From contig CAZWWE010000001.1 of assembly GCA_964637295.1 (NCBI GenBank), forward strand, positions 188,312 through 252,311: 64,000 nt of DNA, written 5' to 3'. The notes beneath the pieces were generated by a model. It ran no database searches. It worked only from the letters and a program-made list of their open reading frames with translations, and was not told where the DNA came from. This DNA is from an uncultured Pseudomonadales bacterium (GTDB lineage Bacteria > Patescibacteriota > Microgenomatia > UBA1400 > PJMF01). Shown here one piece after another: positions 14,794-60,803 of this stretch (positions are counted from its first letter, which is position 1; the number at the start of each line of letters is the position of its first letter). Position numbers and translations under genes: made by a program.

Positions 14794-15969
14794 TTAATCC
14801 TTCCTAGCCAAAAGCAGCCGCTTTGGACTAATAGCTTCGTCATTGTTTCCAAAGCTGCCAGCATTATCAAAAAAATACTCTTTCAAGGCGCCTCCATTTG
14901 GATCTATGACAGTGATTTTAGCGTTGGCGACATCAATATCTTTCACCACAACCCAATGTCCACCTCCACCAAGATTGCCAAAATTACCATTTAACATAAT
15001 TTGCCAGTTACCTTCTTTTTGATATTTTTTTAAATTGTCGATGAGGTCACTATAATTATTGTTTAAATTGGCCTGTCTTATCTCATCTTCTAGAACACCA
15101 TTGCCATTAACACCTGTTCTCGTTTCATAACCTAATTTTTTCAATGCTTCCGCATTTGCCTTCAAACTAGTACCATTGGCGGTAATTCCGTTGGTATTTC
15201 CGATATCATAAAGTCCTAAAACTTTATCTGGAGAAACACCTGTCAGATTTGCTACTGATGTTACGCCACAGCCAACATTGCCAAATTTAATATTTTCTTC
15301 TATGTATATATTTTTCCAACGATTGTCTAATTGGTTAAAAAAAATATCATTTGCGTATTTAGCCGTAGTGGAAACTATCGGCGTCGGAGAAGCACTTACA
15401 GATTTTTCTGTTTTTTGTACATCAGGTTTTGGAGTTTTTTTTGTAGTTTCTGCCGCCAAATAAGACTCAACTAGTTTAAGCGATTGCAAAGTTGGATATT
15501 TATAATTATTAATAGTATTTGGGGGCACCACGACATGAGTTCCTCCAGGCAAAACTTCCCAGTATAGATAGCAGGTATCATTAAGCCAATTGCCCTGTCC
15601 ATTGCAGCTACTTTTTGTTGTTGGTCTATTAGTAGTTGAAGTTGAAACAGTAGTTGGAGTCGGAGTTAAAGTCGAAGTCGGAATTAGAGTTGGGTTGGTG
15701 GTTGGAGTTGAGGTTGTGGTTGGAATTAGAGTTGGACTAGTAGTAATGGTTGAATAAGGTTCACTTTCAAAAGCTTGCTGTCGATTGTCTTGCGTTTGCT
15801 TACTAAGCAAAAAGCTAACAAAAAGACCGATCGCCAAGAAAAAAACAATAAACACATTAGCTAAATTTTTTATTTTCTTTTTTGGAAAAATAAAAGACGT
15901 CTTTAGATCATCATTAACTAAATAGTGGCGATATTTTTCTGGTAAGAAATCTCTAGGATTATTCATCAT
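14794..15969 (-). CDS. Membrane-anchored extracellular C39-like (papain-fold) cysteine peptidase with a Thr/Pro-rich stalk
   Basis: 391 aa. The N-terminus carries DFLPEKY, then a TM, then the juxtamembrane motif SKQTQDNRQQAF. A T/P-rich linker and the motif CNGQGNWLNDTCY follow. The C-terminal domain carries GNVGCGVTSVANL (C39-type Cys motif) and GGGHWVVV (C39-type His motif). Confidence 0.65.
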   Translation of the reverse strand: MMNNPRDFLPEKYRHYLVNDDLKTSFIFPKKKIKNLANVFIVFFLAIGLFVSFLLSKQTQDNRQQAFESEPYSTITTSPTLIPTTTSTPTTNPTLIPTSTLTPTPTTVSTSTTNRPTTKSSCNGQGNWLNDTCYLYWEVLPGGTHVVVPPNTINNYKYPTLQSLKLVESYLAAETTKKTPKPDVQKTEKSVSASPTPIVSTTAKYANDIFFNQLDNRWKNIYIEENIKFGNVGCGVTSVANLTGVSPDKVLGLYDIGNTNGITANGTSLKANAEALKKLGYETRTGVNGNGVLEDEIRQANLNNNYSDLIDNLKKYQKEGNWQIMLNGNFGNLGGGGHWVVVKDIDVANAKITVIDPNGGALKEYFFDNAGSFGNNDEAISPKRLLLARKD

Positions 15970-16085: not shown

Positions 16086-16202
16086 TTCTGGCCTCGACCT
16101 ATCTTCGCAGGGGGAGAACCCCCAACTATTGTCAGCGCTGAAGCGTTTCAAGACTCTGTTCGGGATGGGAAGAGTTGGGACCACCTCGCTCTAGAGACCA
16201 GA
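16086..16202 (-). rRNA. rrf: 5S ribosomal RNA
   Basis: The minus-strand sequence ...GGTGGTCCCAACTCTTCCCATCCCGAACAGAG...GGGGTTCTCCCCCTGCGAAGATAGG... matches the conserved core of 5S rRNA. Confidence 0.85.
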
Positions 16203-16389
16203 ATAAAACGTTTTTACAAATTTGTGCCATCGTACGGTTTTGCACGAAACACAAATTATGTTAATTAGCGATTGTTCGCTAATAAGTGAAGCTAACTGCT
16301 TTATACCTGAGTATAAAAGTTAGTAGTAAAAGATAAATCTTTCACTACTAACCTACTCAATAAGACTTTTCAAAAAACTGATAGATATT

Positions 16390-19300
<2,911 letters not shown>

Positions 19301-19551
19301 ATTTACAAAATATCGAATTTGTTTACACAAATTCTTGTATCATTGAAATGTTCTCTTACTCAGTCATATTGAGTAACAGTTAGTTTTTAACTTAAATAAA
19401 ATTTAAATCAAAAATTTTCTTCACTTATTAAAGAACAAATTTGACGCATTTGCGCCAAACACTAGCTCTTTGCTAGTTATTAGTCTCTAGAAATTTCTAG
19501 TTTAGAAAAATCCAAAGTCTAATAAGCAGCAAATAGTCTATTTTAATTTGC

Positions 19552-19628
19552 TGGTGGACCCTAAGGGGCTCGAACCCTTGGCCTCCACATTGCAAATGTG
19601 GCGCTCTAGCCAACTGAGCTAAGGGCCC
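19552..19628 (-). tRNA. tRNA-Ala (anticodon UGC), with CCA encoded
   Basis: It folds into a cloverleaf with anticodon loop UUUGCAA and the G3:U70 identity pair. It lies just upstream of the 23S gene, as in a typical rRNA operon spacer. Confidence 0.9.
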
Positions 19629-47859: not shown

Positions 47860-48573
47860 TTAAATGCATAAAAAAAGAAAATTTTTTTGACAATTTTTAA
47901 TTAAGTAATCTTTCCATTGACTAACCACTATGACAGTGGTTTCGTTCTTTAGCGTTTTCTGAATGATTTTTTCTGACTTTTTCCTAAACTCTTCATCCCC
48001 CATATTCATCACCTCATCCAACAATAAAATGTCTGGTTCTGCATGTATCGCCACACTGAATCCCAACCTCAGTTTCATACCACTTGAATAAGTATAAAGT
48101 GGCGCAGTGATAAAATCACCAATACCAGCAAAGTCTACAATTTGGGCGAATTTAGCCTCAATTTCTTCTTTAGACATACCAATTACCAAGCCATTAAGAA
48201 AAATATTTTCCTGACCAGTTAAATCTGGATGAAAACCAGCTTCCAAGTCAATTAATGAAATAATTCTTCCTTTGGTCTTCACTTTTCCTTCAGTTGGAGC
48301 AGAGATACCGGCAATAATTTTTAACAAAGTGGTCTTACCTGCACCATTAGGCCCGTAAAATCCCACTTTTTCACCCCTTCGAATTTGTAAGTTTACATTT
48401 TTTAACGCCCAATATTCTTCTCTCGGTTGGAAACGTAATTTTCTACCAACATCCTCAGCGAAAGTTGGCTTTTCGTGATGAACGATGTATTTTTTACCCA
48501 CTCCTTGCAAATCAATCACCACCTCACCAGGATTTTTGCTTTTGTGTAGAATTTCTTCTTTTAAAATTGTCAT
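47860..48573 (-). CDS. wzt: ABC transporter ATP-binding protein (Wzt/TagH-type polysaccharide exporter)
   Basis: Walker A is GFYGPNGAGKTTLLK. The signature SSGMKLRLGF and the Walker B motif LLLDEV are present. Confidence 0.85.
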   Translation of the reverse strand: MTILKEEILHKSKNPGEVVIDLQGVGKKYIVHHEKPTFAEDVGRKLRFQPREEYWALKNVNLQIRRGEKVGFYGPNGAGKTTLLKIIAGISAPTEGKVKTKGRIISLIDLEAGFHPDLTGQENIFLNGLVIGMSKEEIEAKFAQIVDFAGIGDFITAPLYTYSSGMKLRLGFSVAIHAEPDILLLDEVMNMGDEEFRKKSEKIIQKTLKNETTVIVVSQWKDYLIKNCQKNFLFLCI

Positions 48574-48598: not shown

Positions 48599-48759
48599 AC
48601 CTCGTACTCAAATATGAAATCATTGAAGTCGCTGACTGAGCAATAAAGAATCTTACTTTGTTTTTTAACAGCGACTTCACTGAGCGAGACAAAGGCTGGT
48701 TTGTCATTAAGCAAAAATTTTAGTCGAGCGTGTTTCATATTTGAGTACGAGGTTTATAA
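48599..48759. repeat. Intergenic palindromic element between wzm and wzt: a perfect 24-bp terminal inverted repeat flanking 113 bp
   Basis: TAAACCTCGTACTCAAATATGAAA (48599-48622) pairs perfectly with TTTCATATTTGAGTACGAGGTTTA (48736-48759). A nested 11-bp inverted repeat is TGAAGTCGCTG / CAGCGACTTCA. The interior motifs GCTGACTG, AGCAATAA and ACAGCGACT are shared with the element at 57277. Confidence 0.7.
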
Positions 48760-49560
48760 CCAATCATCAAAATTTTTATTTTCCTTACTAAAAACTCTCC
48801 ACCCCAAATAAAACACAAGCGCCACAATCACCAAGCTCACCGGAGCAAGTTCAAGCAAACTAATCGGCAATCCCATCAAAGCATAATGAAACAGCTCAAC
48901 AATAAAAGTCATCGGGTTTAAATAAAACAAAGGTCGCAACATTTCTGGCAAAAGATTCAAAGCATAAATCACCGGCGTGGCATAAAACCACAACATCACC
49001 GCCAATTGCACCATGAAATTCACATCGCGAAAACGCACGTTGAGCGAAGCGGTTAATAAAGACAAACCAACCGTAAAAACCAGCAATAACAACAAAGCTG
49101 GTAATAGCCATAACATGCGTCCCAAATAGGCCGCCAGCGCCAAAACACCATAGCCTTCCAAAAACAACTTATCTGCCACTAAGGCCGCCACCAACAATAA
49201 TAAAGCCACCAAAAAATGAAACAGGTTGGACAAAATGATTGATAAAATGATCGCCTCGCGAGGAAACTTAGCTTTTTTAATCAAATTGCGTTCGTAAAAA
49301 AAAGCAGGCGTGGTTTTGGTCAAACTTTGCGCAAAAAAATTCCAAGGCAAAAGACCAGCAAACAAAAACAAAAAATAATTATCAACGTGCACCGGCACAA
49401 AAAACTGAAAAACAAAGCCCATCACTAACATTTGTGATAAGGGGTTGATCACGATCCACAGAAAACCCAACACGGCATGTTTATAACGCGCCTTAATTTC
49501 CTTTTGGGTCATCACCCACAAAAAATCGAGCCAATAACGAGCCTGATGAGATACAACCAT
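48754..49560 (-). CDS. wzm: ABC-2 type transporter permease (Wzm/TagG-type)
   Basis: The ORF runs to 49671. The likely start is an internal Met near 49560 (MVVSHQARYW...KEIKARYK). It has six TM helices. Confidence 0.75.
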   Translation of the reverse strand: MVVSHQARYWLDFLWVMTQKEIKARYKHAVLGFLWIVINPLSQMLVMGFVFQFFVPVHVDNYFLFLFAGLLPWNFFAQSLTKTTPAFFYERNLIKKAKFPREAIILSIILSNLFHFLVALLLLVAALVADKLFLEGYGVLALAAYLGRMLWLLPALLLLLVFTVGLSLLTASLNVRFRDVNFMVQLAVMLWFYATPVIYALNLLPEMLRPLFYLNPMTFIVELFHYALMGLPISLLELAPVSLVIVALVFYLGWRVFSKENKNFDDWL

Positions 49561-49639
49561 ATCAGTCTCATACAATAGCACAAGAAGATCCTCTTGCAAA
49601 GCGAAATAAAAATGAGTTATTCTTAATTGACGTCTATAC

Positions 49640-50092
49640 ATGTATAAACCCAAAGATTTTTTGCCAGCCAAATATGGATCTAAAGCTACTACTAAGCCTA
49701 TGGTCTCTTCCCCTTGGAATGATTTAGCTAAAACTCCTAAAATTCCAGATTACGAGAGACCAGCTGAGATGAGTCCTGATCATAAACTCACTGAGCTAAA
49801 GGCCATCGATCAACAAAATCAACAAACAAAAACAACTCCAAGTGCTGAAGCTGTGACTTCCAAAGCTTCATTGGGTAAAAAGCCCACGCTGATAAATCAG
49901 AAACTCGCCGGCTTACTAATGGTTTTCTTTTTAGTCATTGGAGTTTTTGCTAGCTACATGTTGAGCAAACAGAATCAAGATCTGAGACAAAAAGCATATG
50001 TGCCCGACGAACCAAGCGATCCTTATCCTGAAGGAGAAATTTGTACTAACCCAGATGGATGCGTAATTGGGTGGGAAATTGTTGAAAAATAA
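49640..50092 (+). CDS. Short membrane protein consisting essentially of the conserved N-terminal anchor module
   Basis: 150 aa: MYKPKDFLPAKY..., a TM (LMVFFLVIGVFASYML), the motif SKQNQDLRQKAY, then CTNPDGCVIGW. It is homologous to the N-terminus of the C39-like peptidase (14794..15969). Confidence 0.45.
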   Translation: MYKPKDFLPAKYGSKATTKPMVSSPWNDLAKTPKIPDYERPAEMSPDHKLTELKAIDQQNQQTKTTPSAEAVTSKASLGKKPTLINQKLAGLLMVFFLVIGVFASYMLSKQNQDLRQKAYVPDEPSDPYPEGEICTNPDGCVIGWEIVEK

Positions 50093-50106
50093 AATATTTA
50101 AAACAA

Positions 50107-52326
50107 ATGCAATTGAAACAAAAATTAAAAAAAACCAATCTTTTTTTCTTCTTTATTTTTAGCTTAATCCTAGCTTTTGTTTTTACTGAAAATAAAATTA
50201 ATCAAATTCAAGCCGAAGGTTTGGTTGAAAAATATCAATGTATTCAAGTTGCGGTTAAATATGGAGAATCCATAAAAAACAGCAAAGCTCAATTTTCCAG
50301 TGAACCTGATTGTAAAAAACAACTGGTTTATATTTTAAACAACCCGGGTGGACAAAGCCCTGGCGTCTGCGGCTCAACTGCCACTTGTACTAACAACAAC
50401 TGGCAAGCTTGTGGCACCGGTTTTGAATGTTTATATAGTTGTTATACGAACGATGGAAAGCAATGTCGTCTCGTACGGAGTAGCGGAACAGGAGGTGGCG
50501 GCAATGGCTCTTGCGACAATAGCAGTGCTACGGCAGCGGTTTGTCGAGGACTAAATGAGGGAGTAAAACTTTATCAATGTAATTGGCAAGGTAGCGGCAA
50601 AAGCTTACAGTGTCAAAGAACTTTTGGAACTCAATGTGCTGCTGTGGAAATTAACGATCTAGCCTGCAATGGAACCATTCCCATTGAAACTAATCCGCCG
50701 CCCAATGGCACTTGTGTTAATACTGGCAGGCCATTTACTGGTCAATGTGTAAAATTCACCTGTAATCAATGTGATCAAAACGGTCGTTGCGGTGAAGAAG
50801 CAATGAGCAATCGAGAATTTGGACCCTGCGATCAGCTTAATTCTCAAGCTAATGAATGTTATCAAATTGATGCGGTAGATGATCAAAAAAATTATTGCAT
50901 ACTTCCAAATTGGACAGAAATCGTACACTGTCCATCTTCTTGTATGCAAAACCCTGTTCCAGTTAATCCAAGTTCAGAGCCTTCCGACAATCCTTCACCT
51001 ACTCAAAAACTTGCTTGTGGTCAGTACGGCTGTACTAGAAATGCCGACTGCGATAATGGCTTGACTTGTCAAACCGTAGAAGTAGATGGTCGTAATCGAA
51101 AAATCTGTGCCAAAGGTGAAAATCAGCTTTTCTGCGCTGCTGCGCCATCGGTTAAAAATTGTTGTGAAAGTCAACCCATGCCTGTTTGTGCCAGTATTGA
51201 AATGCTCAATGCCAATAACGAAGTCATGCAAGGCAATGACGATGAAGCTTTAAAATTAAATGACAAAGTGCGCTTCCGCTGTTCAGCCAGCGGCAATCAA
51301 GATATAGAGTTTGATTATCAATTTAGAATTTGGGACGCTGTAACGGCTACTTGGACCGATATTACTGATTTGACCGATACTGTCGCCAAGAATATTTCTG
51401 CTCTCTACACTATTAAAAATTTCGGCAAGCATATCGCTCAGGGTCGCATTTGTTGGGGTAATAGTTGTCAGCCCTGGGAAAGTCCTGAAACCACTCCCAC
51501 TCAAGCCTGCCAAGATGATGAAGATTGTCCAAGTGGTTCCACTTGTTATCAACCACCAATGCCGGCTTGTCCTTCAGGCACTTCTTGCCCTCAGGTCATG
51601 CCTGCTAAATATTGCAAAGAAGAAACCGACAACAATACCACTGCTCGCTGCCAAAGCAACGCTGACTGTCAAAATGGTTACACCTGCTCCAGCACGCCAG
51701 CAGGCGGCTGCCCATTAGTGACGGTCAATGGCGTCAAAGTGCCTTCTAATTGTGCTTCTGCTCCAATTTGCCGCCAAGCCGAAGGCATTAGTTGCACCAA
51801 CACCACAGATTGTTTTATGGGCTACAGTTGTCAAAATAGACAATGCAAGAGACAAGCTGGTGCTTGTCAAAGCGACGCTGATTGTCAGAATGGTTACACT
51901 TGCTATCAACCCACCACTGCAGAAATTGCTAATTGTTCTGGAGCAAACTGCGCCCAAGTTGCTTCTTATTGCAAAGAAAAAACCGTCAGTTGTCAAAGCG
52001 ACGCTGATTGCAAAGAAGGCTATCTCTGCTCAGCGGAAGTTAGCGGTAGTAGCGGCAACGCTTCTTATACTTCAATTTCAACTAATAAAATTTGTCAAAA
52101 AATCGAAGGTATGACTTGCCAAAACTCAAGTGCTTGCGGCACTGGTTATGCTTGTTACAGCGGTCATTGCACACAAACCATTAAAACTTGTCAAAATAAC
52201 GATGAATGCGGTACGGGCTATGCTTGTTGCACCTCTTCTATGCCAGCCTGTCCTCCTGGAGTCTCTTGCCCTCAGGTTATGCCCGCTAAAAATTGCGTGC
52301 TTAGTAAATATTGTGTAAACAGATAA
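50107..52326 (+). CDS. Secreted cysteine-rich repeat protein
   Basis: 739 aa with a cleavable-type signal peptide and more than 90 Cys. The repeated motifs are CQSDADCQNGYTCY (3 copies) and MPACPSGTSCPQVMPAKYC (2 copies). Confidence 0.65.
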   Translation: MQLKQKLKKTNLFFFFIFSLILAFVFTENKINQIQAEGLVEKYQCIQVAVKYGESIKNSKAQFSSEPDCKKQLVYILNNPGGQSPGVCGSTATCTNNNWQACGTGFECLYSCYTNDGKQCRLVRSSGTGGGGNGSCDNSSATAAVCRGLNEGVKLYQCNWQGSGKSLQCQRTFGTQCAAVEINDLACNGTIPIETNPPPNGTCVNTGRPFTGQCVKFTCNQCDQNGRCGEEAMSNREFGPCDQLNSQANECYQIDAVDDQKNYCILPNWTEIVHCPSSCMQNPVPVNPSSEPSDNPSPTQKLACGQYGCTRNADCDNGLTCQTVEVDGRNRKICAKGENQLFCAAAPSVKNCCESQPMPVCASIEMLNANNEVMQGNDDEALKLNDKVRFRCSASGNQDIEFDYQFRIWDAVTATWTDITDLTDTVAKNISALYTIKNFGKHIAQGRICWGNSCQPWESPETTPTQACQDDEDCPSGSTCYQPPMPACPSGTSCPQVMPAKYCKEETDNNTTARCQSNADCQNGYTCSSTPAGGCPLVTVNGVKVPSNCASAPICRQAEGISCTNTTDCFMGYSCQNRQCKRQAGACQSDADCQNGYTCYQPTTAEIANCSGANCAQVASYCKEKTVSCQSDADCKEGYLCSAEVSGSSGNASYTSISTNKICQKIEGMTCQNSSACGTGYACYSGHCTQTIKTCQNNDECGTGYACCTSSMPACPPGVSCPQVMPAKNCVLSKYCVNR

Positions 52327-52332
52327 AAAATA

Positions 52333-53352
52333 ATGAACATTGATCATCAAACCAAACCAGCTGTTTATTTAAAATCCAAGCAAGGACAAGGTTCTCTGCT
52401 CAAAAAAAATAATTTCAAAGTCATCGCTGCGATTTTAGGCATTTTAATTTTCTTAGGTGGAAGCATTAGCGTCTTTTTGATCAGTCAAAAACAAGACACT
52501 GCTCCAGTCGCTCCCAATGCCCCCCAATCTCAACCAGCTGCTTACATTGAAAAAACTCAAACTTGTACCCTAGAATTTGAAGTCAAAGCACCCGAGGAAG
52601 TTGAAAAACTCGCCTGTGGTGAAAAAGCTTGTACTAGCGATGCAGATTGTGCAGATAATTTGATTTGCGTCACTACTGAAGATGAGGATAGTGCAGGCAA
52701 TCCAGTCAAATACTGTGCTAAACAAGACTACAAAGAAGCTTGTCAAGACGATCCAAGTCAAGAAAGCTGTTGTGAGGAGCCAGAAGAAGTTGAAAAACTC
52801 GCCTGTGGTGAAAAAGCTTGTACTAGCGATGCAGATTGTGCAGATAATTTGATTTGCGTCACTACTGAAGATGAGGATAGTGCAGGCAATCCAGTCAAAT
52901 ACTGTGCTAAACAAGACTACAAAGAAGCTTGTCAAGACGATCCAAGTCAAGAAAGCTGTTGTGAGGAGCCAGAAGACAAACCCACTGACGAGCCGACTGA
53001 TGAACCCACCAAAAAACCCACTGACGAGCCGACTGATGAACCCACCAAAAAACCAACTAGTACGGTCACTCCAGATGACAAAAAAAATCAAAGAATTGTC
53101 ACTACGGCTGATTGTAATGAGAGTTGCCAAGCCAATGCTGACTGCAGCAACCTTAGCCACATTTGTTACAACGGGCAATGTCGTCTCGATGTCAATCCAA
53201 CCGATGCTCAGTGCAAACTACCCAATGGTGAAACTGTCATCGTTCGACCAGTCGAAGTGCCAACTCAAAGTGGCCCTGCTAATTGGCTCAACTATGTTAA
53301 AGCCGGCTTAGGCACTTTGGGTCTAGGCGCTTTATTGCTCCTACTTCTCTAA
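52333..53352 (+). CDS. Cys-rich surface protein with an N-terminal signal anchor, a tandem-duplicated 63-aa Cys module, PTDEPT repeats and a C-terminal hydrophobic tail
   Basis: 339 aa. The juxtamembrane ISQKQD follows the TM. The motif CTSDADCADNLICV resembles the motif in the 50107 protein. The C-terminus is GLGTLGLGALLLLLL. Confidence 0.65.
   Translation: MNIDHQTKPAVYLKSKQGQGSLLKKNNFKVIAAILGILIFLGGSISVFLISQKQDTAPVAPNAPQSQPAAYIEKTQTCTLEFEVKAPEEVEKLACGEKACTSDADCADNLICVTTEDEDSAGNPVKYCAKQDYKEACQDDPSQESCCEEPEEVEKLACGEKACTSDADCADNLICVTTEDEDSAGNPVKYCAKQDYKEACQDDPSQESCCEEPEDKPTDEPTDEPTKKPTDEPTDEPTKKPTSTVTPDDKKNQRIVTTADCNESCQANADCSNLSHICYNGQCRLDVNPTDAQCKLPNGETVIVRPVEVPTQSGPANWLNYVKAGLGTLGLGALLLLLL
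52594..52976 (+). repeat. Perfect tandem duplication of a 189-bp (63-codon) unit, 2 copies, inside the 52333 CDS
   Basis: The sequence 52597-52785 is repeated exactly at 52786-52974, with a period of 189 bp that is in frame. Confidence 0.9.
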
Positions 53353-53403: not shown

Positions 53404-53477
53404 GCGTGTGTAGCTCAATTGGTTAGAGCTCCAAGCTTATACCTTGGCGGTTCTAGGTTCGAGTCCTAGCACACGCA
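53404..53477 (+). tRNA. tRNA-Ile with a genomic UAU anticodon
   Basis: It folds into a cloverleaf with acceptor GCGTGTG / CACACGC, D arm GCTC..GAGC, anticodon stem CCAAG / CTTGG, loop CTTATAC (giving anticodon TAT) and T arm CTAGG-TTCGAGT-CCTAG. Confidence 0.8.
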
Positions 53478-53511
53478 CTTAAATAACCCATTTTTCTGCT
53501 AAAATGGAAGC

Positions 53512-53928
53512 ATGTTACGCAAGCTAATAATTATTGTTGTAGCTTTTCTGCTTCTTTTTGGTGTTTATAAATTTGCTAAAGCCAAAAATCTCTTGCCTAG
53601 TTATATTTTCTCCAAAATCGAAGAAGCTATTCCAGATAAGATTAGTTTACCATGGAATAAAGAGCAAGAAATTCAATTAGATGGAATCAAAGTAGAACAA
53701 AAAGATTTAGAAAAATTAGGTAAAGATGGCTTAGCTCAAGTACAGATTTTGGCAGAAAAAGCCAAAGAAGCCGGCACTGTCGCTCAAGATTTTGTTGAAG
53801 ACGTGGTTCAAGTCGATGAAAACTCTGATAAAAACATCTCTGAAAAAGCCTTTGAGTATGGCCGCTACATTTATTGTCAGGAAGTGGTTAAACAATACGA
53901 AGCAAATAACTCAAAGCAAACATTTTAA
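53512..53928 (+). CDS. Hypothetical secreted protein
   Basis: 138 aa with an N-terminal signal peptide (LIIIVVAFLLLFGVYKFAKA). Confidence 0.4.
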   Translation: MLRKLIIIVVAFLLLFGVYKFAKAKNLLPSYIFSKIEEAIPDKISLPWNKEQEIQLDGIKVEQKDLEKLGKDGLAQVQILAEKAKEAGTVAQDFVEDVVQVDENSDKNISEKAFEYGRYIYCQEVVKQYEANNSKQTF

Positions 53929-53947: not shown

Positions 53948-54946
53948 CTAAAACAAATGATTATCCAAGAATTTAGGTTTTGCACCCACTCCTGAAGAAA
54001 TAATTTTTTTGACCGATTTTATTTTTTGCAAAACTGAAGCGACCTCTTTTTCGTATTTTGGCAAAGTTAAAACGTGGACATTAAAACCAGTGTTAATCGT
54101 AAAATATACAGGTAAACCAGATTTTCTTAATTGACGAACGGCTTGCATCACTTCAATAGTTCCAGGATAAAAAAGTAAAATATTTGGTTTACTAGTCAAT
54201 AAAATGCTGTGAAACTCCAAAGCTTCAGCTTCAGCTAGCTCTCCCAAAGTAATAAAGTCTTTATTTAAAATCGCTTTTTTAACAGCTGAAAGTTTTGCTC
54301 TAATATTTTTCTGACGAGCTTCAAAAAACAAACTACTTTCTGCTAAATCATGACCCTCAGTTGAACTAAGGCTTTTTTTGTCTTCAGAAACAATAGTCAC
54401 TAAATCTTTGATTGAAAAAGTAGCTGCTGGAGCAAAACTTTGCGAATAAGATTTTTCCGAAGTTGCGCCATCTAACCACTCAACAAAGCCACCGCAAACA
54501 CAACGGCAAGCCGTACCAGAACCTTGACGCGCTAAAATTGAAAGTTCTTTTTCAGATAAATTCAAACCAATTGCTTGACAAGCAGCCAAAGTTAAAGCAG
54601 CAAAACCAGAGCCAGAACTAGAAAGTCCAGTGCTTTTAGGAAAATTGTTTTCTGAAACCACCTTGGCAAAAATGTCTGTTTTTATTAAATTTTGACTTTT
54701 AGCCAAATCTCTAATTCTATCCAAATGTTTAACGACGCGAGAAGCCTCACCTTCTTCCACTTCGCCGCCAATAATCACTTCGTCTCTACTTAAATTTGAT
54801 AAAAATTCTACCGTAGTTGTGCTGTGTAATGAATCCAAAATCATTGAAATGCTGCCATTGGCTGGCAAGCGCAAAACCTTGTCTTTCTTACCCCAATATT
54901 TAACCAAAGCCACGTCACTACTCGCTTGAACGGTTATTTTTTGCAT
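53948..54946 (-). CDS. mvaD: Diphosphomevalonate decarboxylase family enzyme (GHMP superfamily)
   Basis: The N-terminal motif SDVALVKYWGKKD and the serine-rich loop TGLSSSGSGFAAL are present. Confidence 0.8.
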   Translation of the reverse strand: MQKITVQASSDVALVKYWGKKDKVLRLPANGSISMILDSLHSTTTVEFLSNLSRDEVIIGGEVEEGEASRVVKHLDRIRDLAKSQNLIKTDIFAKVVSENNFPKSTGLSSSGSGFAALTLAACQAIGLNLSEKELSILARQGSGTACRCVCGGFVEWLDGATSEKSYSQSFAPAATFSIKDLVTIVSEDKKSLSSTEGHDLAESSLFFEARQKNIRAKLSAVKKAILNKDFITLGELAEAEALEFHSILLTSKPNILLFYPGTIEVMQAVRQLRKSGLPVYFTINTGFNVHVLTLPKYEKEVASVLQKIKSVKKIISSGVGAKPKFLDNHLF

Positions 54947-54968
54947 AAAATTTCCTTTTTATTTTTAG

Positions 54969-55061
54969 TGAGACTCGAACAGCAATTTCAAGACATTTGA
55001 TGACGCGAAAAGATGTATCTAATCGAGTCATCTCTGGCTTGAAATTAGTGTTCGAGTCGTA
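54969..55061. repeat. Imperfect nested palindrome overlapping the 3' end of the GHMP kinase gene; likely a terminator or processing hairpin
   Basis: GACTCGAACAGCAATTTCAAG pairs with CTTGAAATTAGTGTTCGAGTC (2 mismatches). An inner inverted repeat TGATGAC / GTCATC is also present. Confidence 0.45.
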
Positions 55062-56037
55062 CACCCTCTGCATTCATTTCTACTTCAATAATTTTACCCC
55101 CAACTTTTTCAATTTCTCGGGCGATAGCTATTTTGCTAGCCTCATCTGATAAGGCCAGCATACAATCTCCACCTCCGGCTCCAGAAAGTTTGGCGCCCAT
55201 GGCACCAGCACTTTTGCTGGCAGCAATTAAATTTTCCAGTTCAATACTACTCACTTGCAGTCTGCGCAATAAAGTTTGATTTTCATCCATTAACAAACCC
55301 AAGTGTGGCCAATCTTGCTGTTGCAAAGTTTTCTTGGCCTGTTCTACTACAAGAGTAATGTCGCTAAAAATTTTATTTACTGTCGTCTTGTTTTCACTAT
55401 GTAAATTTTGCACCATGCGTACTAAGGTGGCTGTATCAGCCTTTACACCGGTATAACCAACCATAAAAGGCAAATTTTGTACATTGATTGGCTCAACAGT
55501 TTTATTTTGGGCAAATTTACCCTGAGGCGTAATGTAATAAAGCGTGCCACCCCAAATAGCAGCCGCAATATCAAAACCTGAGGCCACTCCTTGAATTTCT
55601 AAAACGGTAGCGTAACAAAGATCAAAAAGTTGATCATTGGTCATCGGCACTTCGTAAAATTCACTCAAAGCCTTAGCAAAGGCCACCGTGCTGGCACTAC
55701 TCGAGCCAAGACCATAAGAGCTTTTAAACTCATTTTTACTATAAACATGAATGCTCTGTTTTTGCGGATATTTTTGAAGAAAAAGTTTATAACAAGTTTC
55801 AATGAAACTTACTTCTTTGGGTAAATTTTCATTAGCAAGATCAGTGATTTTTTTTGAATAAGCTCGCAAACCCAAGTCTGGAGCATCTAAAACAAAGATT
55901 TGTTCGCCATTTTCTTCCACTGTAATTGATAGGCGGCGATCAACAGCAGTCACAATGCAAGGATGACCAAAAACCACGCTGTGTTCACCAAAAAGCATTA
56001 ATTTACCAGGTGCCGAAGTCTTAACTGTTTTTTTCAT
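55045..56037 (-). CDS. mvk: GHMP kinase, mevalonate kinase-like
   Basis: The N-terminal motif TSAPGKLMLFGEHSVVFG and the Gly-rich ATP loop GLGSSSAS are present. Confidence 0.7.
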   Translation of the reverse strand: MKKTVKTSAPGKLMLFGEHSVVFGHPCIVTAVDRRLSITVEENGEQIFVLDAPDLGLRAYSKKITDLANENLPKEVSFIETCYKLFLQKYPQKQSIHVYSKNEFKSSYGLGSSSASTVAFAKALSEFYEVPMTNDQLFDLCYATVLEIQGVASGFDIAAAIWGGTLYYITPQGKFAQNKTVEPINVQNLPFMVGYTGVKADTATLVRMVQNLHSENKTTVNKIFSDITLVVEQAKKTLQQQDWPHLGLLMDENQTLLRRLQVSSIELENLIAASKSAGAMGAKLSGAGGGDCMLALSDEASKIAIAREIEKVGGKIIEVEMNAEGVRLEH

Positions 56038-56899
56038 AAATCATTCCCAATTGAGTTTGAAAAAAATCAAAACCCATTGCTTGTAAAGTTTTTGCGAATT
56101 CTTGAGAGTTTTTGTGCCAGGCTAAAATATAACCAGAACCAGTTTCAATTCCGCCAGCACCAGTGATTTTACAAAAAGCGCCTTTGCTTCTTAAGTGTTG
56201 AATAATTCTCTGAGCTTTTTGACCCACCACGCCAATTTGCTCCAATAAAATCTGATTTGCATTTAATAGCTCTGGATTAAAAACTCCAGCTTGCAAATCA
56301 ACAAGCATTTTTTGACTTAAATCACCAATTTTTTGCAAAGTTGTCCGATTACTTGCTTCATTAGCAACTTTGCGCACCATTTCACCAGTGCTTTCACTAG
56401 CTTCTCCAGAATTTATTAAGAAAAAAGATTGATCAATCAATGTTTTATTTAATATTGGCTCAATTTTTGCTTGCTTAAAAGCAAGCAATCCTCCATAAAC
56501 TACAATGCTCGGATCCGCTCCGCTTGAACGACCATGAATAAAATTTTCTGCCTCTAAAACTAAATTGTAGAGTCGATCGGCATTTAAAGAATAATTATGA
56601 AATTTAAATAATTCGCTAAAAACAGCCGCCGCCAAAGCAGCTGATGAACCAAGACCAGACTTTTCTGGTAAATTTGATACAATTTCGATGGCCACTGACA
56701 TCTTGGGCAATTGAGCGTGTTTGTAAAAAATCTCCAAAATGTGTTGTAAATAAGGATCTTGCTTTTGTTCTTGGCTTAAAACTCCCTCCTTAATGGCACA
56801 AGTAATTCCTAAATTTAAACTCGCCAAAATAGCAGTGTGCCCATAAACCACACTGTGTTCGCCAGTTAAAATAACTTTTCCTCTATAAAAACTAGACAT
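56021..56899 (-). CDS. Second GHMP kinase, a mevalonate/phosphomevalonate kinase-family enzyme
   Basis: GKVILTGEHSVVYG and the GLGSSAALAAA loop are present. It overlaps the downstream kinase gene by 17 nt. Confidence 0.65.
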   Translation of the reverse strand: MSSFYRGKVILTGEHSVVYGHTAILASLNLGITCAIKEGVLSQEQKQDPYLQHILEIFYKHAQLPKMSVAIEIVSNLPEKSGLGSSAALAAAVFSELFKFHNYSLNADRLYNLVLEAENFIHGRSSGADPSIVVYGGLLAFKQAKIEPILNKTLIDQSFFLINSGEASESTGEMVRKVANEASNRTTLQKIGDLSQKMLVDLQAGVFNPELLNANQILLEQIGVVGQKAQRIIQHLRSKGAFCKITGAGGIETGSGYILAWHKNSQEFAKTLQAMGFDFFQTQLGMIYEKNS

Positions 56900-56916
56900 A
56901 ATTCCTTTTTCAATAT

Positions 56917-56969
56917 GAGAGAAAACTTAGTCCTTTAATCTAAGCTGTCTTATGTTAAAGGACTAAGTT
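56917..56969. repeat. Short hairpin made of the same arm sequences as the 57277 element, with the interior collapsed to an 8-nt loop
   Basis: GAGAGAAAACTTAGTCCTTTAATCTAAG pairs with CTGTCTTATGTTAAAGGACTAAGTTCTCTC. The arms are almost identical to the TIRs of the 57277-57447 element. Confidence 0.65.
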
Positions 56970-57280
56970 CTCTCTGCCTTTAGCCCGTAACAAATAATTT
57001 CTTGCGACGCTTCTTTTTTGATTTTTCTCAGCACTATTTCGACTTCATCACCAATTTTGAATTTCTGATGCGCCACTCCCATTAAAGAAATTTTTTCTTT
57101 GCCTAAATCAACTAATAAATAAGCATAAGGCAATAACTCAGTTTGATCAGAAGCAGAAACTTCCATCATTGTGACAGATAAAACTTTGCCTTTTTGACCT
57201 AAATATTTGGACCAGTTTTTATTGGAGCGCCAGTATTCTGTAATTTGCATAAAATTTTTCCATTTAACCAAATAAATCAA
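56963..57280 (-). CDS. DUF35-family OB-fold protein (thiolase/HMG-CoA synthase scaffold-like); the N-terminal zinc ribbon is absent
   Basis: 105-aa ORF with a TTG start at 57280; the first ATG is at 57250. The OB-fold signature LPYAYLLVDLGKEKISLMGV...IGDEVEIVL is present. It lies between the thiolase gene and the kinase genes. Confidence 0.55.
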   Translation of the reverse strand: MIYLVKWKNFMQITEYWRSNKNWSKYLGQKGKVLSVTMMEVSASDQTELLPYAYLLVDLGKEKISLMGVAHQKFKIGDEVEIVLRKIKKEASQEIICYGLKAERT

Positions 57281-57447
57281 AACTTAGTCCTTTAATATAA
57301 GACCATTTGCAGGAGCTGACTGCTAAACATCAATAAGCAATAATGTTTATAGACAGCGACTGCAATGAGTGTAGAAGAAGATTGTTAACTTAAATAAGCT
57401 AATAATTTTCATCTAACGTGTCTTATGTTAAAGGACTAAGTTTTGAT
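57277..57447. repeat. Intergenic palindromic element between the thiolase and DUF35 genes: a 28-bp terminal inverted repeat with 1 mismatch flanking 116 bp
   Basis: ATCAAAACTTAGTCCTTTAATATAAGAC (57277-57304) pairs with GTCTTATGTTAAAGGACTAAGTTTTGAT (57420-57447). The interior shares GCTGACTG, AAGCAATAA and ACAGCGACTGCAATGAG with the 48599 element. Confidence 0.7.
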
Positions 57448-58551
57448 TCCCAAGATATTAACTATTGCCGTCGCGCCACTGCCGCCAACATTATGGGCAA
57501 GCGCCTTGTCAAATTGACCAGCTTCAATTGATGATGCCAAAAAAGCCACCTGTTTTACACCAGTGGCTCCCACTGGATGCCCACAAGCCTTGAGCCCACC
57601 AGAAGGGTTGACTACTACTAAACCATCATAAGTGGCTTGACCTTCAGCAATAGCCTTAGCAGCCTGACCTTTGCTAAAAAAGCCAAGATCTTCAGTGGCT
57701 AGAATTTCAGCAATACTAAAACAATCATGTACTTCAATGGCTTGAATATCTTTTTGACTCAAACCAGCCTGATTAAAGGCTTGCTTAGCTGCTTTTTGTG
57801 TGGCTACTAATTTTCCTAAGTCTTGGCGGTCTTGCAGTGCCAATGTATCTTGGGCATGACCAAAACCTAAAATTTGCGTTTTACGATTGGATTTTTTACT
57901 ACTTAGAATCACCGCTGCTACTCCATCACTAATTGGCGAACAATCTAAAAGTCTAAGCGGCGAAGCAACTATCGCAGAATTAGCAACATCTTCGAGAGTA
58001 AATTTTTTATGAAATTGAGCCTGGGGATTACTAAAAGCATGCAGGTGATTTTTAACCACCACGCTAGATAATTGCTCTCGAGTCGTTCCATAGTGATGCA
58101 TGTGATAATCGGCTAAAACTGCATAAAGCGCTGGAAAAGTCGAACCGTATTCCTTTTCTCTACTAGCCGCTGTCGCCAAAATAGCGCTAGCTTGACTACC
58201 AGAAACATCAGTCATTTTTTCTACTCCCAAAACCAAAACTGTCTTGTATAAACCGCTGAGTAAAGCTTGTTGCGCTGCCACTACTGCCAAGCCACCAGAG
58301 GCACAAGCCCCTTCGACGCGCATCGCCGGCGGAAAATGAGCAAATTGTTCACTGACTAAAGCCCCCAAATGTCTTTGTTCATTAAAACTGCCACTGGCCT
58401 TGTTAGCGACAAAAATTGCTTCAATTTCTGAAGGATTGATTTGTGCATCAGCCAAAACACCGCTCACACCTTCTTTAATCAAATCGGTTAAACTTTTTTC
58501 CCAAAGTTCCCCAAATTTACCGATGTAGTTACCAATTATTTTAATGTTCAT
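57436..58551 (-). CDS. Archaeal-type acetoacetyl-CoA thiolase (thiolase-like / SCP-x family)
   Basis: 371 aa with the catalytic Cys in EGACASGG and the C-terminal motif GHPVGATGV. Confidence 0.75.
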   Translation of the reverse strand: MNIKIIGNYIGKFGELWEKSLTDLIKEGVSGVLADAQINPSEIEAIFVANKASGSFNEQRHLGALVSEQFAHFPPAMRVEGACASGGLAVVAAQQALLSGLYKTVLVLGVEKMTDVSGSQASAILATAASREKEYGSTFPALYAVLADYHMHHYGTTREQLSSVVVKNHLHAFSNPQAQFHKKFTLEDVANSAIVASPLRLLDCSPISDGVAAVILSSKKSNRKTQILGFGHAQDTLALQDRQDLGKLVATQKAAKQAFNQAGLSQKDIQAIEVHDCFSIAEILATEDLGFFSKGQAAKAIAEGQATYDGLVVVNPSGGLKACGHPVGATGVKQVAFLASSIEAGQFDKALAHNVGGSGATAIVNILGIKT

Positions 58552-59626
58552 GCTGACTCCTCATTTTTTGATAATTGGCAAGATCAATCGTCTGCAAAAC
58601 AGCAATTTGCTCTGCAAGCATTTTGCGAAATTTTTTTCTTTGGGCAACTAGATAGCTAGTCGTTTCAAACAAAAAGGCATCGGCTCCAGCTCCAGAGCCA
58701 TAAGAACAAATTAAAATTTTACTTTTAGCGGGAGCAATATCTAAAACTGCACACAAAGCTAAAAGCGAAGCCGCCGCATAAGTGTTGCCAATTTCCTTCA
58801 CAATCAAAGATGGCGCCAATTGCTCTTTAGTAAAACCCAATTGTTTAGCGACCTGCTCTGGAAACTTGGCATTGGGGGTATGAAAAACACAAAAATCTAT
58901 CTCTGCTGGCTGTAAATTAACTTCCTCTAACAAAGCTTTGGTTGCCATGGTTACATGCTTAAAATAGGCAGGTTCACCAGTAAATCTACCAAAGTGTTGC
59001 GGATAAGCTTCTTTGGGTTTACGCCAAAAATCTGGAGTGTCGGTTGCCACTGATTTAGTGGCCAGCAATTCAGCTAATAGTTGATTGCCATTTACTTCGC
59101 TACCAAGAATGAAGGCGGCGGCGCCCGCCGCCGCCGTATATTCCAAAGCGTCGCCGGGGCGAGCTTGAGCTGTATCAGCACCAATCGCCATCGCACTTTT
59201 TGACATGCCTGCTTGCACATAAGCAGCAGCGATTTGCAGCGACTGTGAACCTGCTTTGCAAGCAAATTGTAAATCTGCCATACTCAAAAAATCACTCAAA
59301 CCCAAAGCGGTTTTGGCTACTGTTCCAGAAGGTTTCACGGCATAAGGATGACTTTCGCTACCAATAAAAAGCGTGCCAATATCATTGACTATTCCCCCAT
59401 TAGCTAAAAACCGATCAAGAGCAATTTTGCCTGCACTAGTTGCCAAAGTAATCGTGTCTTCATCAACACTTGGCACAGTTTTAGAGATTACGCCAAGTGA
59501 TTTTGCTAAATCATTATTTTTACCCTGACTTTCTGCAATCGTGCTGGTCAAAACTTTTTGTTTTGGCAAAGCTGCCCCGTAAGCAACAATCCCCACTCGA
59601 TTTTTGTTTATTTTAGAGTTTTTCAT
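58541..59626 (-). CDS. mvaS: Hydroxymethylglutaryl-CoA synthase, short archaeal-type
   Basis: 361 aa with a thiolase-fold condensing-enzyme pattern. The active-site Cys lies in FACKAGSQSL. It is coupled to the thiolase gene with an 11-nt overlap. Confidence 0.7.
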   Translation of the reverse strand: MKNSKINKNRVGIVAYGAALPKQKVLTSTIAESQGKNNDLAKSLGVISKTVPSVDEDTITLATSAGKIALDRFLANGGIVNDIGTLFIGSESHPYAVKPSGTVAKTALGLSDFLSMADLQFACKAGSQSLQIAAAYVQAGMSKSAMAIGADTAQARPGDALEYTAAAGAAAFILGSEVNGNQLLAELLATKSVATDTPDFWRKPKEAYPQHFGRFTGEPAYFKHVTMATKALLEEVNLQPAEIDFCVFHTPNAKFPEQVAKQLGFTKEQLAPSLIVKEIGNTYAAASLLALCAVLDIAPAKSKILICSYGSGAGADAFLFETTSYLVAQRKKFRKMLAEQIAVLQTIDLANYQKMRSQHEH

Positions 59627-59630
59627 GTAA

Positions 59631-60803
59631 TTATCTTGCTAAACGCTGATGAGCGCTGGCTAAACTATGGTTACTAAGGGCTGCTAAGCCAGAAATTTCG
59701 GCCGCCAATACACCCGCTGCGAGAATTGTGACTAGTTGCGATGCGCTAAGATCTTTTTGATCTTTTGTAATGAGATTTCGTAATTCTTTTTGCGCAGGCA
59801 AGTTTGTTCCTCCACCAACACTACCCAGTGGCAAATCTGGGAGATTGACGGCAACATACAAACCTTTTTCTTCATTTTCTACAATCGTAGTTCCTTGACT
59901 GGCTTCTACGATATGAGCCAAATCTTGGCCAGTGGCCATATAAAAAGCTGCCGCTACATTGGCAAACTGCATATTGGCTGAATTAGAACCCGCTATTTGA
60001 GAACCAAGCACATTCTTGGCTTGATGAGTTCTTAAAAAATCCCTAGCATTTGTTTTTAAAACATTTTGCAAAATCTCTTCATTTAAAAAAATCTCTGCTT
60101 GGGCACTATAGCCTCTACCTAATAATTGATTGATGAATGATACTTTTTTATCTGTGCAAACATTACTAGACAAAGCCAGCATTTCTATGCCCTTATATTG
60201 ACTGAGAAACTCTTCCCAAAGTTTCTGCAGGGCGATGGTCACCATATTCATACCCATCGCTTCATCAGTTAAAAAACTAAAACGTACATAAACATTGCGG
60301 CCTCTGACCAAACTCATTAGTTTAATAAATTTAAGATGCGAGCTGGTTTTTTCGGTAATTTGACGAATTTTGGCACTGGTTTTGACTTCTTCCAAATATT
60401 GGGCAAAGGCAAAAGCTTCATTGCCACTTCTAAAAGCAAAAACTGGAGCTCGAGTTATTCCAAAATTGGTCACTCTGACTTGTGCTCCGCCAGCTTGATT
60501 AATGACTTTCAGACCTCTATTGACGCTGGCCACAAGTGCTCCTTCGCTGGTCGCCAAAGGCACAAAGTATTCGGCTGTTTTTTGTTGCTCAATAATTTTG
60601 ACTGGCCCAGCCAAGCCAACCGGCAACGCCACTGCACCCACCATGTTTTCGCAATTTTTTTGATTAGCTTGGGATAATTCAGGATTAACTGCAAAAAGAT
60701 GAGTAAAAACACCTTTTTTCCATTCTTTTTGCAATTGTTCTTGACGCTTTTTAATCATTTCCAGATCAGAAAGCTCTTTTTGATTTTTGACAAAAAACGA
60801 CAT
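59631..60803 (-). CDS. mvaA: HMG-CoA reductase, soluble catalytic domain only
   Basis: 390 aa carrying ENMVGAVALPVGLAGPVKI and the DAMGMNMV motif. Confidence 0.8.
   Translation of the reverse strand: MSFFVKNQKELSDLEMIKKRQEQLQKEWKKGVFTHLFAVNPELSQANQKNCENMVGAVALPVGLAGPVKIIEQQKTAEYFVPLATSEGALVASVNRGLKVINQAGGAQVRVTNFGITRAPVFAFRSGNEAFAFAQYLEEVKTSAKIRQITEKTSSHLKFIKLMSLVRGRNVYVRFSFLTDEAMGMNMVTIALQKLWEEFLSQYKGIEMLALSSNVCTDKKVSFINQLLGRGYSAQAEIFLNEEILQNVLKTNARDFLRTHQAKNVLGSQIAGSNSANMQFANVAAAFYMATGQDLAHIVEASQGTTIVENEEKGLYVAVNLPDLPLGSVGGGTNLPAQKELRNLITKDQKDLSASQLVTILAAGVLAAEISGLAALSNHSLASAHQRLAR

Follow-up and report, generated by a model that had tools for sequence, protein, structure and literature searches.

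The question raised by this locus is what kind of protein is encoded by three consecutive open reading frames (ORFs A, B and C) in a 64,000-nt stretch of contig CAZWWE010000001.1 (the window), and how such proteins would be held at the cell surface. An earlier note had described them as a cluster of three cysteine-rich genes next to a polysaccharide exporter, encoding exported proteins associated with the membrane or envelope of a monoderm-type organism. The three ORFs were confirmed as consecutive on the plus strand (Table 1), and export with envelope association is supported by a signal peptide and by transmembrane (TM) segments predicted from hydropathy. Bacteria of the candidate phyla radiation (CPR), or Patescibacteria, are ultra-small, and the cultivated members live attached to other cells. 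Little is known of how they build their envelope and recognize their hosts, and annotation is lacking for the majority of the proteins that they export. The organism studied here is a CPR member of the Microgenomates/Pacebacteria type, because its closest relatives are metagenome-assembled genomes labelled Candidatus Pacebacteria (UBA6188, UBA6180, UBA1364), Paceibacterota, Parcubacteria group and Woesebacteria, together with the complete 853-kb genome CP011212.1. On comparison with related loci, the ‘cluster of three’ resolves into two paralogous genes for surface proteins, B and C, plus a detached N-terminal anchor, A. We consider it about an even chance (probability roughly 0.5) that the locus encodes lineage-specific envelope, surface or adhesion proteins, fast-evolving and modular, with an anchor derived from a sortase system.

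Cysteine content separates the three ORFs. B contains 74 cysteines (10.0%) and C contains 23 (6.8%), a 10-15x enrichment over the window background, for which 43 further ORFs average 0.66% and reach at most 2.7%, while A contains 2 (1.3%) and lies within that range. Consequently, the description of each gene as cysteine-rich applies to B and C alone, and the figure of more than 90 cysteines given for B was an overcount. The strings that had been quoted from B and C are present, with CQSDADCQNGYTCY at residue 587 of B, MPACPSGTSCPQVMPAKYC at residues 485-503 of B and again at residues 712-730, and two copies of CTSDADCADNLICV in C. In B, 8 matches to the core motif C..[NDSTEQ].[DENSAQ]C.{2,3}[GN].{1,2}C were counted compared with 0.06 expected from composition-preserving shuffles; 0 of 2000 shuffles reached 8.

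The cysteines are organized in three types of module. An 8-Cys module starting with CG (CGxxGCxxxxDCxxGLxC...C...C...CC) has one copy in B and two in C, and the B and C families together contain 82 instances; AlphaFold2 (AF2) modelled it in both proteins with a predicted local distance difference test score (pLDDT) above 90. A 6-Cys unit (CxxxxDCxxGYxCYQPPMPxCPxGxSCxQVMPxKxC) occurs in B together with shorter derivatives. The third type is a 6-Cys knot inside the C-terminal module of C, also modelled with pLDDT above 90. Profile-profile comparison showed that the three share a 17-residue core, C-x2-[ND]-x-D-C-x2-G-x2-C. With hhalign, the 8-Cys module matched the 6-Cys unit at 82% probability, and the 6-Cys unit matched the C-terminal knot of C at 46%. 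This result upholds the earlier proposal of a small disulfide-rich unit shared among these proteins. The cysteines of B and C are probably disulfide-bonded; complete pairing in B fits because the number of cysteines is even in every segment of the protein (8, 16, 8, 4 and 38).

It had been cautioned that the repeat might be a trivial known domain, and the searches do not support that view. Family scans of A to D (D is a fourth ORF of the block, described below) gave no match to the cysteine modules in Pfam or NCBIfam, the Pro/Thr (PT) repeat of C being the sole match. Searches of PDB sequences with B and with profiles of the 6-Cys unit and the 8-Cys module gave nothing significant (E>=0.02, on partial stretches). 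Among the small cysteine-rich families of Pfam, Toxin_11 and DX were sub-threshold (E 0.05-0.09), and Dickkopf, toxin and EGF families were below threshold. Foldseek searches of the PDB with both AF2 models gave no match at E<=1e-3 (all E>=0.06); inhibitor cystine knot (ICK) spider toxins and Draxin were at the top for the C model without being significant (best E=0.53). The top Foldseek and hidden Markov model neighbours of the small modules were 2h1z, Ms11a, Draxin 5z5k and heteropodatoxin, none of them significant (E>=0.37). Nor was there similarity to S-layer, SLH, chitin-binding, cellulose-binding or carbohydrate-binding modules in the Pfam, NCBIfam, PDB and Foldseek searches. These modules therefore appear to represent undescribed cysteine-knot families. 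They resemble ICK knottin toxins and Dickkopf/colipase-type domains in being small (35-50 aa) disulfide-stabilised hairpins, and the C-x-x-D-x-D-C-x-x-G-x-x-C start is reminiscent of the Dickkopf N-domain. However, they differ in their cysteine patterns, namely 8-Cys ending in CC and the 6-Cys QPPMP unit.

The anchor of C was examined using its last 83 residues. An exhaustive profile search at E<=1e-3 recovered 364 representative clusters, of which 173 remain at E<=1e-10. Among the best 150 matches, in proteins of 92-1504 aa, nearly all reach the last residue of the protein. Because it is strictly C-terminal across proteins of such different lengths, the 83-residue module appears to behave as a C-terminal sorting or anchoring module. 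The tail pattern GLGxLGLGALLLLL, which the earlier note had suggested checking against sorting-signal families, is the end of this module. The family consensus, QPxLPxELP[QE][TS]GPxDWxNWLKAGLxxLGxGAxLLLLL, contains an LPXTG motif, and LPx[TSA]G is found at the motif position in 114 of 190 proteins of the wider family. The TIGR01167 LPXTG_anchor model matches 24 of 54 family tails (best E=7e-5), and other LPXTG and pilin models match too. Proteins of the wider family carry DUF11 repeats and RrgB-type isopeptide fimbrial domains as cargo.

Consequently, the module invites comparison with LPXTG sortase substrates such as MSCRAMM adhesins and SpaH/RrgB-type pilins. In those proteins too, an N-terminal export signal is combined with a modular ectodomain that has a Pro/Thr stalk, and a hydrophobic helix comes after the C-terminal motif. 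The wider family of the module has LPQTG, LPETG or LPQSG, is matched by curated LPXTG models and includes DUF11 and isopeptide pilin domains. In C itself, a hydrophobic segment follows the motif (residues 321-339, Kyte-Doolittle 1.82; helix 316-338 in the AF2 model), and an N-terminal Sec signal of signal-anchor type, TM 30-48, follows a basic stretch. In contrast to LPXTG substrates, the entire family of this module is without a basic tail, and a 6-Cys knot and GPxDWxNWLKAGL are built into the module. The knot and the juxtamembrane GPxDWxxWLKxG are conserved parts of it and thus a systematic departure from the canonical signal. In addition, C has a long cytoplasmic segment and a TM helix with CPR-specific motifs instead of a classical short signal peptide. 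Its own motif is VPTQSG (PTQSG if aligned without gaps), VPT[QE]SG in its subfamily and xPV[SA]G in sister groups; the Pacebacteria subfamily to which C belongs no longer has the LP of LPXTG, while the module is otherwise almost invariant. C is thus homologous to the LPXTG-type module yet fails two defining features of LPXTG substrates, the pentapeptide and the basic tail. Exosortase, archaeosortase and rhombosortase signals (PEP-CTERM, VPDSG-CTERM, PGF-CTERM, GlyGly-CTERM) also place a short motif before a C-terminal TM helix on many unrelated exported proteins, but they have no knot, span about 25 aa and finish with a basic cluster, and the consensus here is LPXTG, not PEP, PGF or GG. The NCBIfam models of these classes matched neither C nor any of the 54 family tails at E<=10, and these tails have no basic cluster. 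The likeness of VPDSG to the VPTESG/VPTQSG of the C subfamily is presumably superficial.

We also compared A and B with their homologs. All 19 B homologs (430-604 aa) start with a sequence like that of A (MxNP[RK]DF[LI]PAKYKK ... SPWSDLAKEP ... TM ... KQNQDxRQQA), which is followed by a Cys-rich head, a PT linker, a CG module, a sandwich and knots. In every related locus examined with tblastn the A-like and B-like parts lie inside a single ORF. Since A and B are one gene in relatives, A appears to be the detached N-terminal anchor of B. The ecto-tail of A retains one cysteine pair (C135, C141), two of four cysteines having been lost relative to the fused homologs. The split is identical in two independent Logan assemblies, and it recurs in two other, diverged lineages, in which stand-alone A homologs (P0213 and P0214, 57-59% identical) have the same end, ...GWEIVEK, followed by the same B start (L031, L032). 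The ratio of nonsynonymous to synonymous substitution rates (dN/dS) was 0.17, 0.17 and 0.12 in three pairwise comparisons, indicating purifying selection on A, and its frame is intact through several in-frame indels, with dS about 1.5 between the A of the window and that of the other two lineages. A frameshift or read-through joining A and B was ruled out by stops in all three frames between them. A DNA-level duplication of the A anchor as the source of the B signal peptide was also rejected; there was no nucleotide similarity, and the hydrophobic similarity was weak.

The nucleotide identity between the window and L031 changes abruptly at the A/B junction (window 49876-50448 versus L031 1450-2021). 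The permease gene is 79% identical, the 5′ half of A can barely be aligned and the 3′ end of A is about 80-88% identical, while the first 342 nt of B are 99.4% identical with no synonymous change, compared with about 79% for flanking genes. A chimeric contig was judged unlikely because two substitutions in the B of L031 (L7I and N11S) recur in L032, an independent Joint Genome Institute (JGI) contig. The recombination breakpoint thus seems to coincide with the A/B junction, which suggests that the B cassette recently recombined or was exchanged horizontally. On our reading, the exposed head may be replaced in the manner of a cassette, and in the lineage of the window the anchor would thereby have been separated from the ectodomain.

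Hydropathy agrees with the earlier designation of B as a signal-peptide protein, the N-terminal hydrophobic core covering residues 10-28. A cleavage site after IQA36 is plausible from inspection by eye, and MAFFT aligned the signal peptide with the anchor/QDxRQQA region of homologs. In the head, residues 37-133 have no homolog and residues 134-279 share 55% identity with the P0018/L006 head. Most homologs, including closer relatives, have a different head type (DPYC...GGDWCDDPNT), the type of P0018/L006 is shared with the B of the window, and a third is found in P0019 and P0020. The beta-sandwich, with 7-8 strands, has FN3 and Ig domains (titin, myomesin) as its top Foldseek neighbours, at template modelling scores of 0.5-0.6 (target-normalised) and E 0.06-0.5, and Pfam was sub-threshold. 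In the C-terminal third of B, seven units are found where homologs have 1-3, and two of the seven are full 6-Cys QPPMPxCPxGxSCxQVMPxKxC units.

Table 1. Features of the locus, with positions in the window
Feature	Position	Strand	Description
ABC-2 exporter ATPase	47860-48573	-	Pfam ABC_tran 7.7e-24
ABC-2 exporter permease	48754-49671	-	Pfam ABC2_membrane 7.1e-18
ORF A	49640-50092	+	150 aa; putative detached N-terminal anchor; cytoplasmic MYKPKDFLPAKY and SPWNDLAK, TM 89-107, SKQNQDLRQKA, 43-aa ecto-tail
ORF B	50107-52326	+	739 aa
B signal peptide (predicted)	50107-50214	+	Residues 1-36; Lys-rich n-region, core LFFFFIFSLILAFVF (hydrophobic residues 10-28), c-region NQIQA (hydropathy)
B head	50215-50955	+	Residues 37-283; 24 Cys; AF2 pLDDT below 50
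B 8-Cys CG module	51016-51165	+	Residues 304-353; AF2 pLDDT above 90; no PDB sequence match
B beta-sandwich	51166-51486	+	Residues 354-460; 4 Cys; most conserved part of B family; all-beta, AF2 pLDDT above 90
B C-terminal array	51487-52323	+	7 small knots, 38 Cys; each begins C-x5-C-x5-C; AF2 pLDDT 45-80
ORF C	52333-53352	+	339 aa; cytoplasmic xPAVYLKSK, TM 30-48, conserved post-TM stretch, two CG modules, PT stalk, C-terminal anchor module
C tandem duplication	52591-52968	+	189 nt, perfect, doubles CG module; Tandem Repeats Finder 100% matches over 2.0 copies; repeat search family D1
C acidic PT linker	52969-53070	+	KPTDEPTDEPTK twice; Pfam PF04886 E=1.5e-6; 36-nt tandem repeat; AF2 pLDDT below 50
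C C-terminal module	53101-53349	+	83 aa; 6-Cys knot CNESCQANADCSNLSHICYNGQCRLDVNPTDAQC, then VPTQSGPANWLNYVKA, then Gly-rich hydrophobic tail GLGTLGLGALLLLLL without basic end
tRNA-Ile (anticodon UAU)	53404-53478	+	Between C and D
ORF D	53512-53928	+	138 aa; N-terminal TM (hydropathy), then conserved helical ectodomain

C had been described as a membrane-anchored protein with PTDEPT repeats and a C-terminal tail, and this description holds: TM segments are predicted at both ends (30-48 and 321-339), the Pfam PT repeat is present and the protein ends in GLGTLGLGALLLLLL. The linker carrying these repeats is probably disordered, judging from the AF2 model. The perfect 189-nt tandem duplication had been overlooked. 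The same layout was found in 45 close homologs, with one to four CG modules. The cysteines of C comprise 8 + 8 + 6 of the paired type plus Cys78, which lies in the conserved post-TM stretch SQKQDTAPVAPNAPQSQPAAYIEKTQTC78TLEFEV. This residue (window 52564-52566) is a single unpaired, near-invariant cysteine in the motif AAYIEKTQTC-TLEFEV, about 30 residues past the N-terminal TM. C-[TS]-L-x-F-x-V after APxAPxSxPxA is also present in many distant members of the C-terminal-module family, and candidate roles of the cysteine are an intermolecular disulfide or modification. One database ‘homolog’ of C (P0064, JGI, 209 aa) is a wrong-frame call over a close relative of C and is correct only through one CG module.

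The N-terminal regions carry recurrent motifs. Among 132 full-length carriers of the C-terminal module, QDxRxxA is found in 37 and the C-type APxAPxSxPxA after the TM in 55. The leader of the A type is also present on another ORF of the window (14794-15969, minus strand) and, in a shortened form, on a giant ORF at the start of the window. The former, of 391 aa, has the A-like N-terminus MMNNPRDFLPEKYR ... TM ... SKQTQDNRQQA and then a PT-rich linker; its C-terminal domain has no Pfam match, and the anchor module is thus common to unrelated cargo. The giant ORF (1 to about 4895, minus strand, >1631 aa) runs off the start of the window, and is Gln/Ala/Leu-rich and apparently coiled-coil. Its N-terminal TM leads into LKNQQDIRQQASGCQPGQPYCDP, in which both the post-TM motif and the DPYC start are those of the AB family. 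A different style of anchor occurs in the same genome: a 603-aa protein (4908-6719, minus strand) with an N-terminal TM, a purple-acid-phosphatase N-terminal (FN3-like) domain and Ser/Thr/Pro-rich linkers has a C-terminal hydrophobic segment with a basic end (...FLAKNMASKKPL), unlike that of C. The N-terminal motifs are not in Pfam or NCBIfam, and they look like lineage-specific export or anchor signals. They resemble the YSIRK and KxYKxGKxW signal peptides of Gram-positive bacteria in that a conserved motif lies in the N-terminal export region of different surface proteins of one lineage. However, the sequences are unrelated; here a cytoplasmic FLPAKYKK or QPQAxYxK lies near residue 10, and QNQDxRQQA or APNAPxSxPxA follows the TM.

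The neighbourhood of the genes was then compared among related loci. Pfam assignments agree with the earlier note that a polysaccharide exporter lies next to these genes. The ABC-2 permease and ATPase are directly upstream of A-B-C-D and divergent from them, at the edge of a cluster with WecG/TagA, GT1/GT2/GT4 and Wzy_C genes. ORF D is a fourth conserved member of the block that had been overlooked, as had the tRNA-Ile(UAU) gene. The order ATPase-permease (minus strand), AB, C, tRNA-Ile(UAU) and D is kept in at least 12 related loci (tblastn), which belong to Pacebacteria and their relatives, and L006 keeps the block although its downstream flank differs. D lies downstream of a C-like gene in every locus with enough flank and has no family match in Pfam or NCBIfam. 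The tRNA gene directly follows the C-type gene in the window and in 9 of 9 relatives checked (L003, L004, L006, L010, L012, L013, L021, L023 and L028). In most bacteria AUA is decoded by a modified CAU tRNA, and a conserved UAU tRNA-Ile is thus noteworthy for this lineage. Synteny alone is no proof that the exporter and the proteins of A-B-C-D are functionally linked; it is merely suggestive, because a housekeeping tRNA is kept in the same block and gene order appears generally stable here. A scan for promoters and terminators gave counts at the level of shuffled sequence and was uninformative.

Two other regions of the window were noted. Immediately downstream of the locus (53948-60803, minus strand) lies a block of mevalonate-pathway genes, comprising a diphosphomevalonate decarboxylase-like gene with GHMP kinases, a thiolase and an HMG-CoA-synthase-like ACP_syn_III_C protein separated by a small ORF, and HMG-CoA reductase; the block was assigned by Pfam labels on syntenic genes in L003 and L004. 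At 16086-19628 (minus strand) are bacterial 23S and 5S rRNA genes and a tRNA-Ala gene without an adjoining 16S rRNA gene, in place of which a 782-aa ORF lies directly upstream of the tRNA-Ala gene.

How might these proteins work together? We believe that they would be exported by the Sec pathway and then folded outside the cell, where disulfide formation would give the knot modules. C would be the tethered member; its N-terminal signal-anchor would be followed by two 8-Cys modules, a PT stalk that is acidic and disordered, and a diverged LPXTG-type C-terminal module, the last belonging to a large CPR family of sorting signals made up of a knot, LPXTG and a Gly-rich helix. A sortase-like enzyme might link C to the wall or, because the motif has drifted to VPTQSG, the C-terminal helix may just hold C in the membrane. 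B would be the large ectoprotein paralog of C, in which a head and an 8-Cys module precede an FN3/Ig-like sandwich and an array of seven small knots. In the lineage of the window the anchor would be a separate gene (A) and B would have its own cleavable signal peptide, so that B would be released or else stay on the surface through non-covalent contacts with A, C or the wall. Duplication and recombination would shuffle heads, module numbers and alleles, as expected for proteins that touch the environment or a host cell. The analysis establishes the architecture, the homologies, the family-wide C-terminal module, the split with its conservation and the synteny; we infer disulfide bonding, sortase processing, surface display and a function in adhesion or in a coat.

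Several results weigh against this explanation. No structural or sequence match points to a function (all Foldseek E>=0.06), and the head of B, ~250 residues, is poorly modelled by AF2. The tail of C, with its VPTQSG motif, was unmatched by TIGR01167 or any NCBIfam sorting-signal model, even at E<=10, and the whole family lacks a basic C-terminal tail, essentially all members, like C, having neither Lys nor Arg in an ending such as LLLLL or LFLLL. A scan for the TLxTC motif found no sortase within the window or related loci, and no PF04203 sortase was found within 10 kb of P0160, P0122 or P0192, three LPXTG-bearing members of the wider family, including Pfam scans of unannotated neighbours of ~200 aa. 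The synteny with the exporter may be mere gene-order conservation, the tRNA being conserved in the same block. In favour of a sortase, the literature on sortases, LPXTG proteins and cysteine-rich surface proteins in CPR bacteria supplied one relevant point: a Microgenomates genome is reported to encode such an enzyme (PMC7143001).

Of the alternatives, the most probable, although still unlikely, is that B, C and D form a structural, wall-associated or S-layer-like coat functionally coupled to the secondary cell-wall polymer that the adjacent glycosyltransferase/ABC-2 cluster makes and exports, and bind or anchor that polymer instead of acting as adhesins. The adjacency of exporter, AB, C and D in at least 12 loci, including L006 with its different other flank, would fit such a coat, as would the WecG/TagA, GT1/2/4 and Wzy_C genes around the locus, the good conservation of D and the beta-sandwich, and the PT stalk with double anchoring, which suit a fixed envelope layer. 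However, SLH, S-layer and carbohydrate-binding modules gave no similarity in Pfam, NCBIfam or Foldseek, the retained tRNA gene makes synteny weak evidence, and variable proteins that are exposed and bind ligands would account for the swapping of heads, the changes in copy number and the recent exchange of alleles better than a lattice would. We regard as improbable a role for B as an effector secreted against a host or competitor cell and made up of arrayed knottin-like toxins, protease inhibitors or antimicrobial peptides. Its cleavable signal peptide, the missing anchor in the lineage of the window, the expanded repeat array and the recent horizontal exchange would all suit an effector. The nearest fold and sequence neighbours of the small modules, none of them significant, are ICK spider toxins, heteropodatoxin and a toxin from a sea anemone, together with a carboxypeptidase inhibitor and a nodule Cys-rich peptide. 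Yet all toxin and inhibitor matches are above E=0.01 and most above 0.3, the B protein is membrane-anchored in about 20 relatives, and there are no evident processing sites between the knots.

The view that A and B are what is left of a single disrupted gene, whether a pseudogene or an assembly or sequencing artefact, with the cluster accidental, is largely refuted and has very little probability left. It had been raised in the earlier note and was right in that relatives encode both parts in one ORF and that A ends inside the start of the head domain of its homologs. It fails because the split is kept in diverged lineages and under selection (dN/dS 0.12-0.18 at dS about 1.5, with the frame preserved through in-frame indels). 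The same split is also found in both independent assemblies of the strain, stops in all three frames mean that no single frameshift rejoins A and B, B starts with what appears to be a bona fide signal peptide, and A has lost exactly two of four cysteines, leaving an even pair. Least credible of all is that the cysteines bind metal, as the earlier note had suggested, in a metallothionein-like or redox-buffering role, and form no disulfides. The very high cysteine content would fit this, but the proteins are predicted to be exported, the cysteines are spaced in a fixed manner in compact modules and even in number in every segment of B, there are no CxxC or His-rich metal motifs, only one cysteine (C78 of C) is unpaired, and AF2 gives compact hairpin/helix knots at pLDDT above 90.

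We also considered an undescribed sorting system for surface proteins that would be the Patescibacteria's own and would use two paired signals; we think this doubtful. The N-terminal signal would comprise a cytoplasmic Y-x-K motif and, past a TM, QDxRQQA or APxAPxSxPxA...C; the C-terminal signal would be the 83-aa module of knot, LPXTG, GPxDWxxWLKxG and Gly-zipper helix without a basic tail. With the LP lost in the Pacebacteria subfamily of C, retention or recognition there would be freed from the classical sortase, either through a double membrane anchor or through another transpeptidase that reads the helix and GPxxW. The detached A and secreted B would be a naturally split two-component protein, with the B cassette exchanged horizontally between lineages.

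The explanation that we prefer, that of modular surface or adhesion proteins with a sortase-derived anchor, combines known kinds of protein, LPXTG-type surface proteins and small disulfide-rich repeats, with domain families that are undescribed. Its value lies mainly in annotation and in hypotheses, the functions proposed being deduced from sequence. The three disulfide-knot modules are definable and could become new domain families. The large C-terminal module family ties CPR surface proteins to sortase-type anchoring, with a systematic departure in that the basic tail is missing and extra conserved motifs are present, and the recurrent N-terminal motifs could serve to predict the CPR surface proteome. 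Finally, the natural split between anchor and ectodomain, with its signs of recent allele exchange, makes B a candidate for interaction with a host or the environment.

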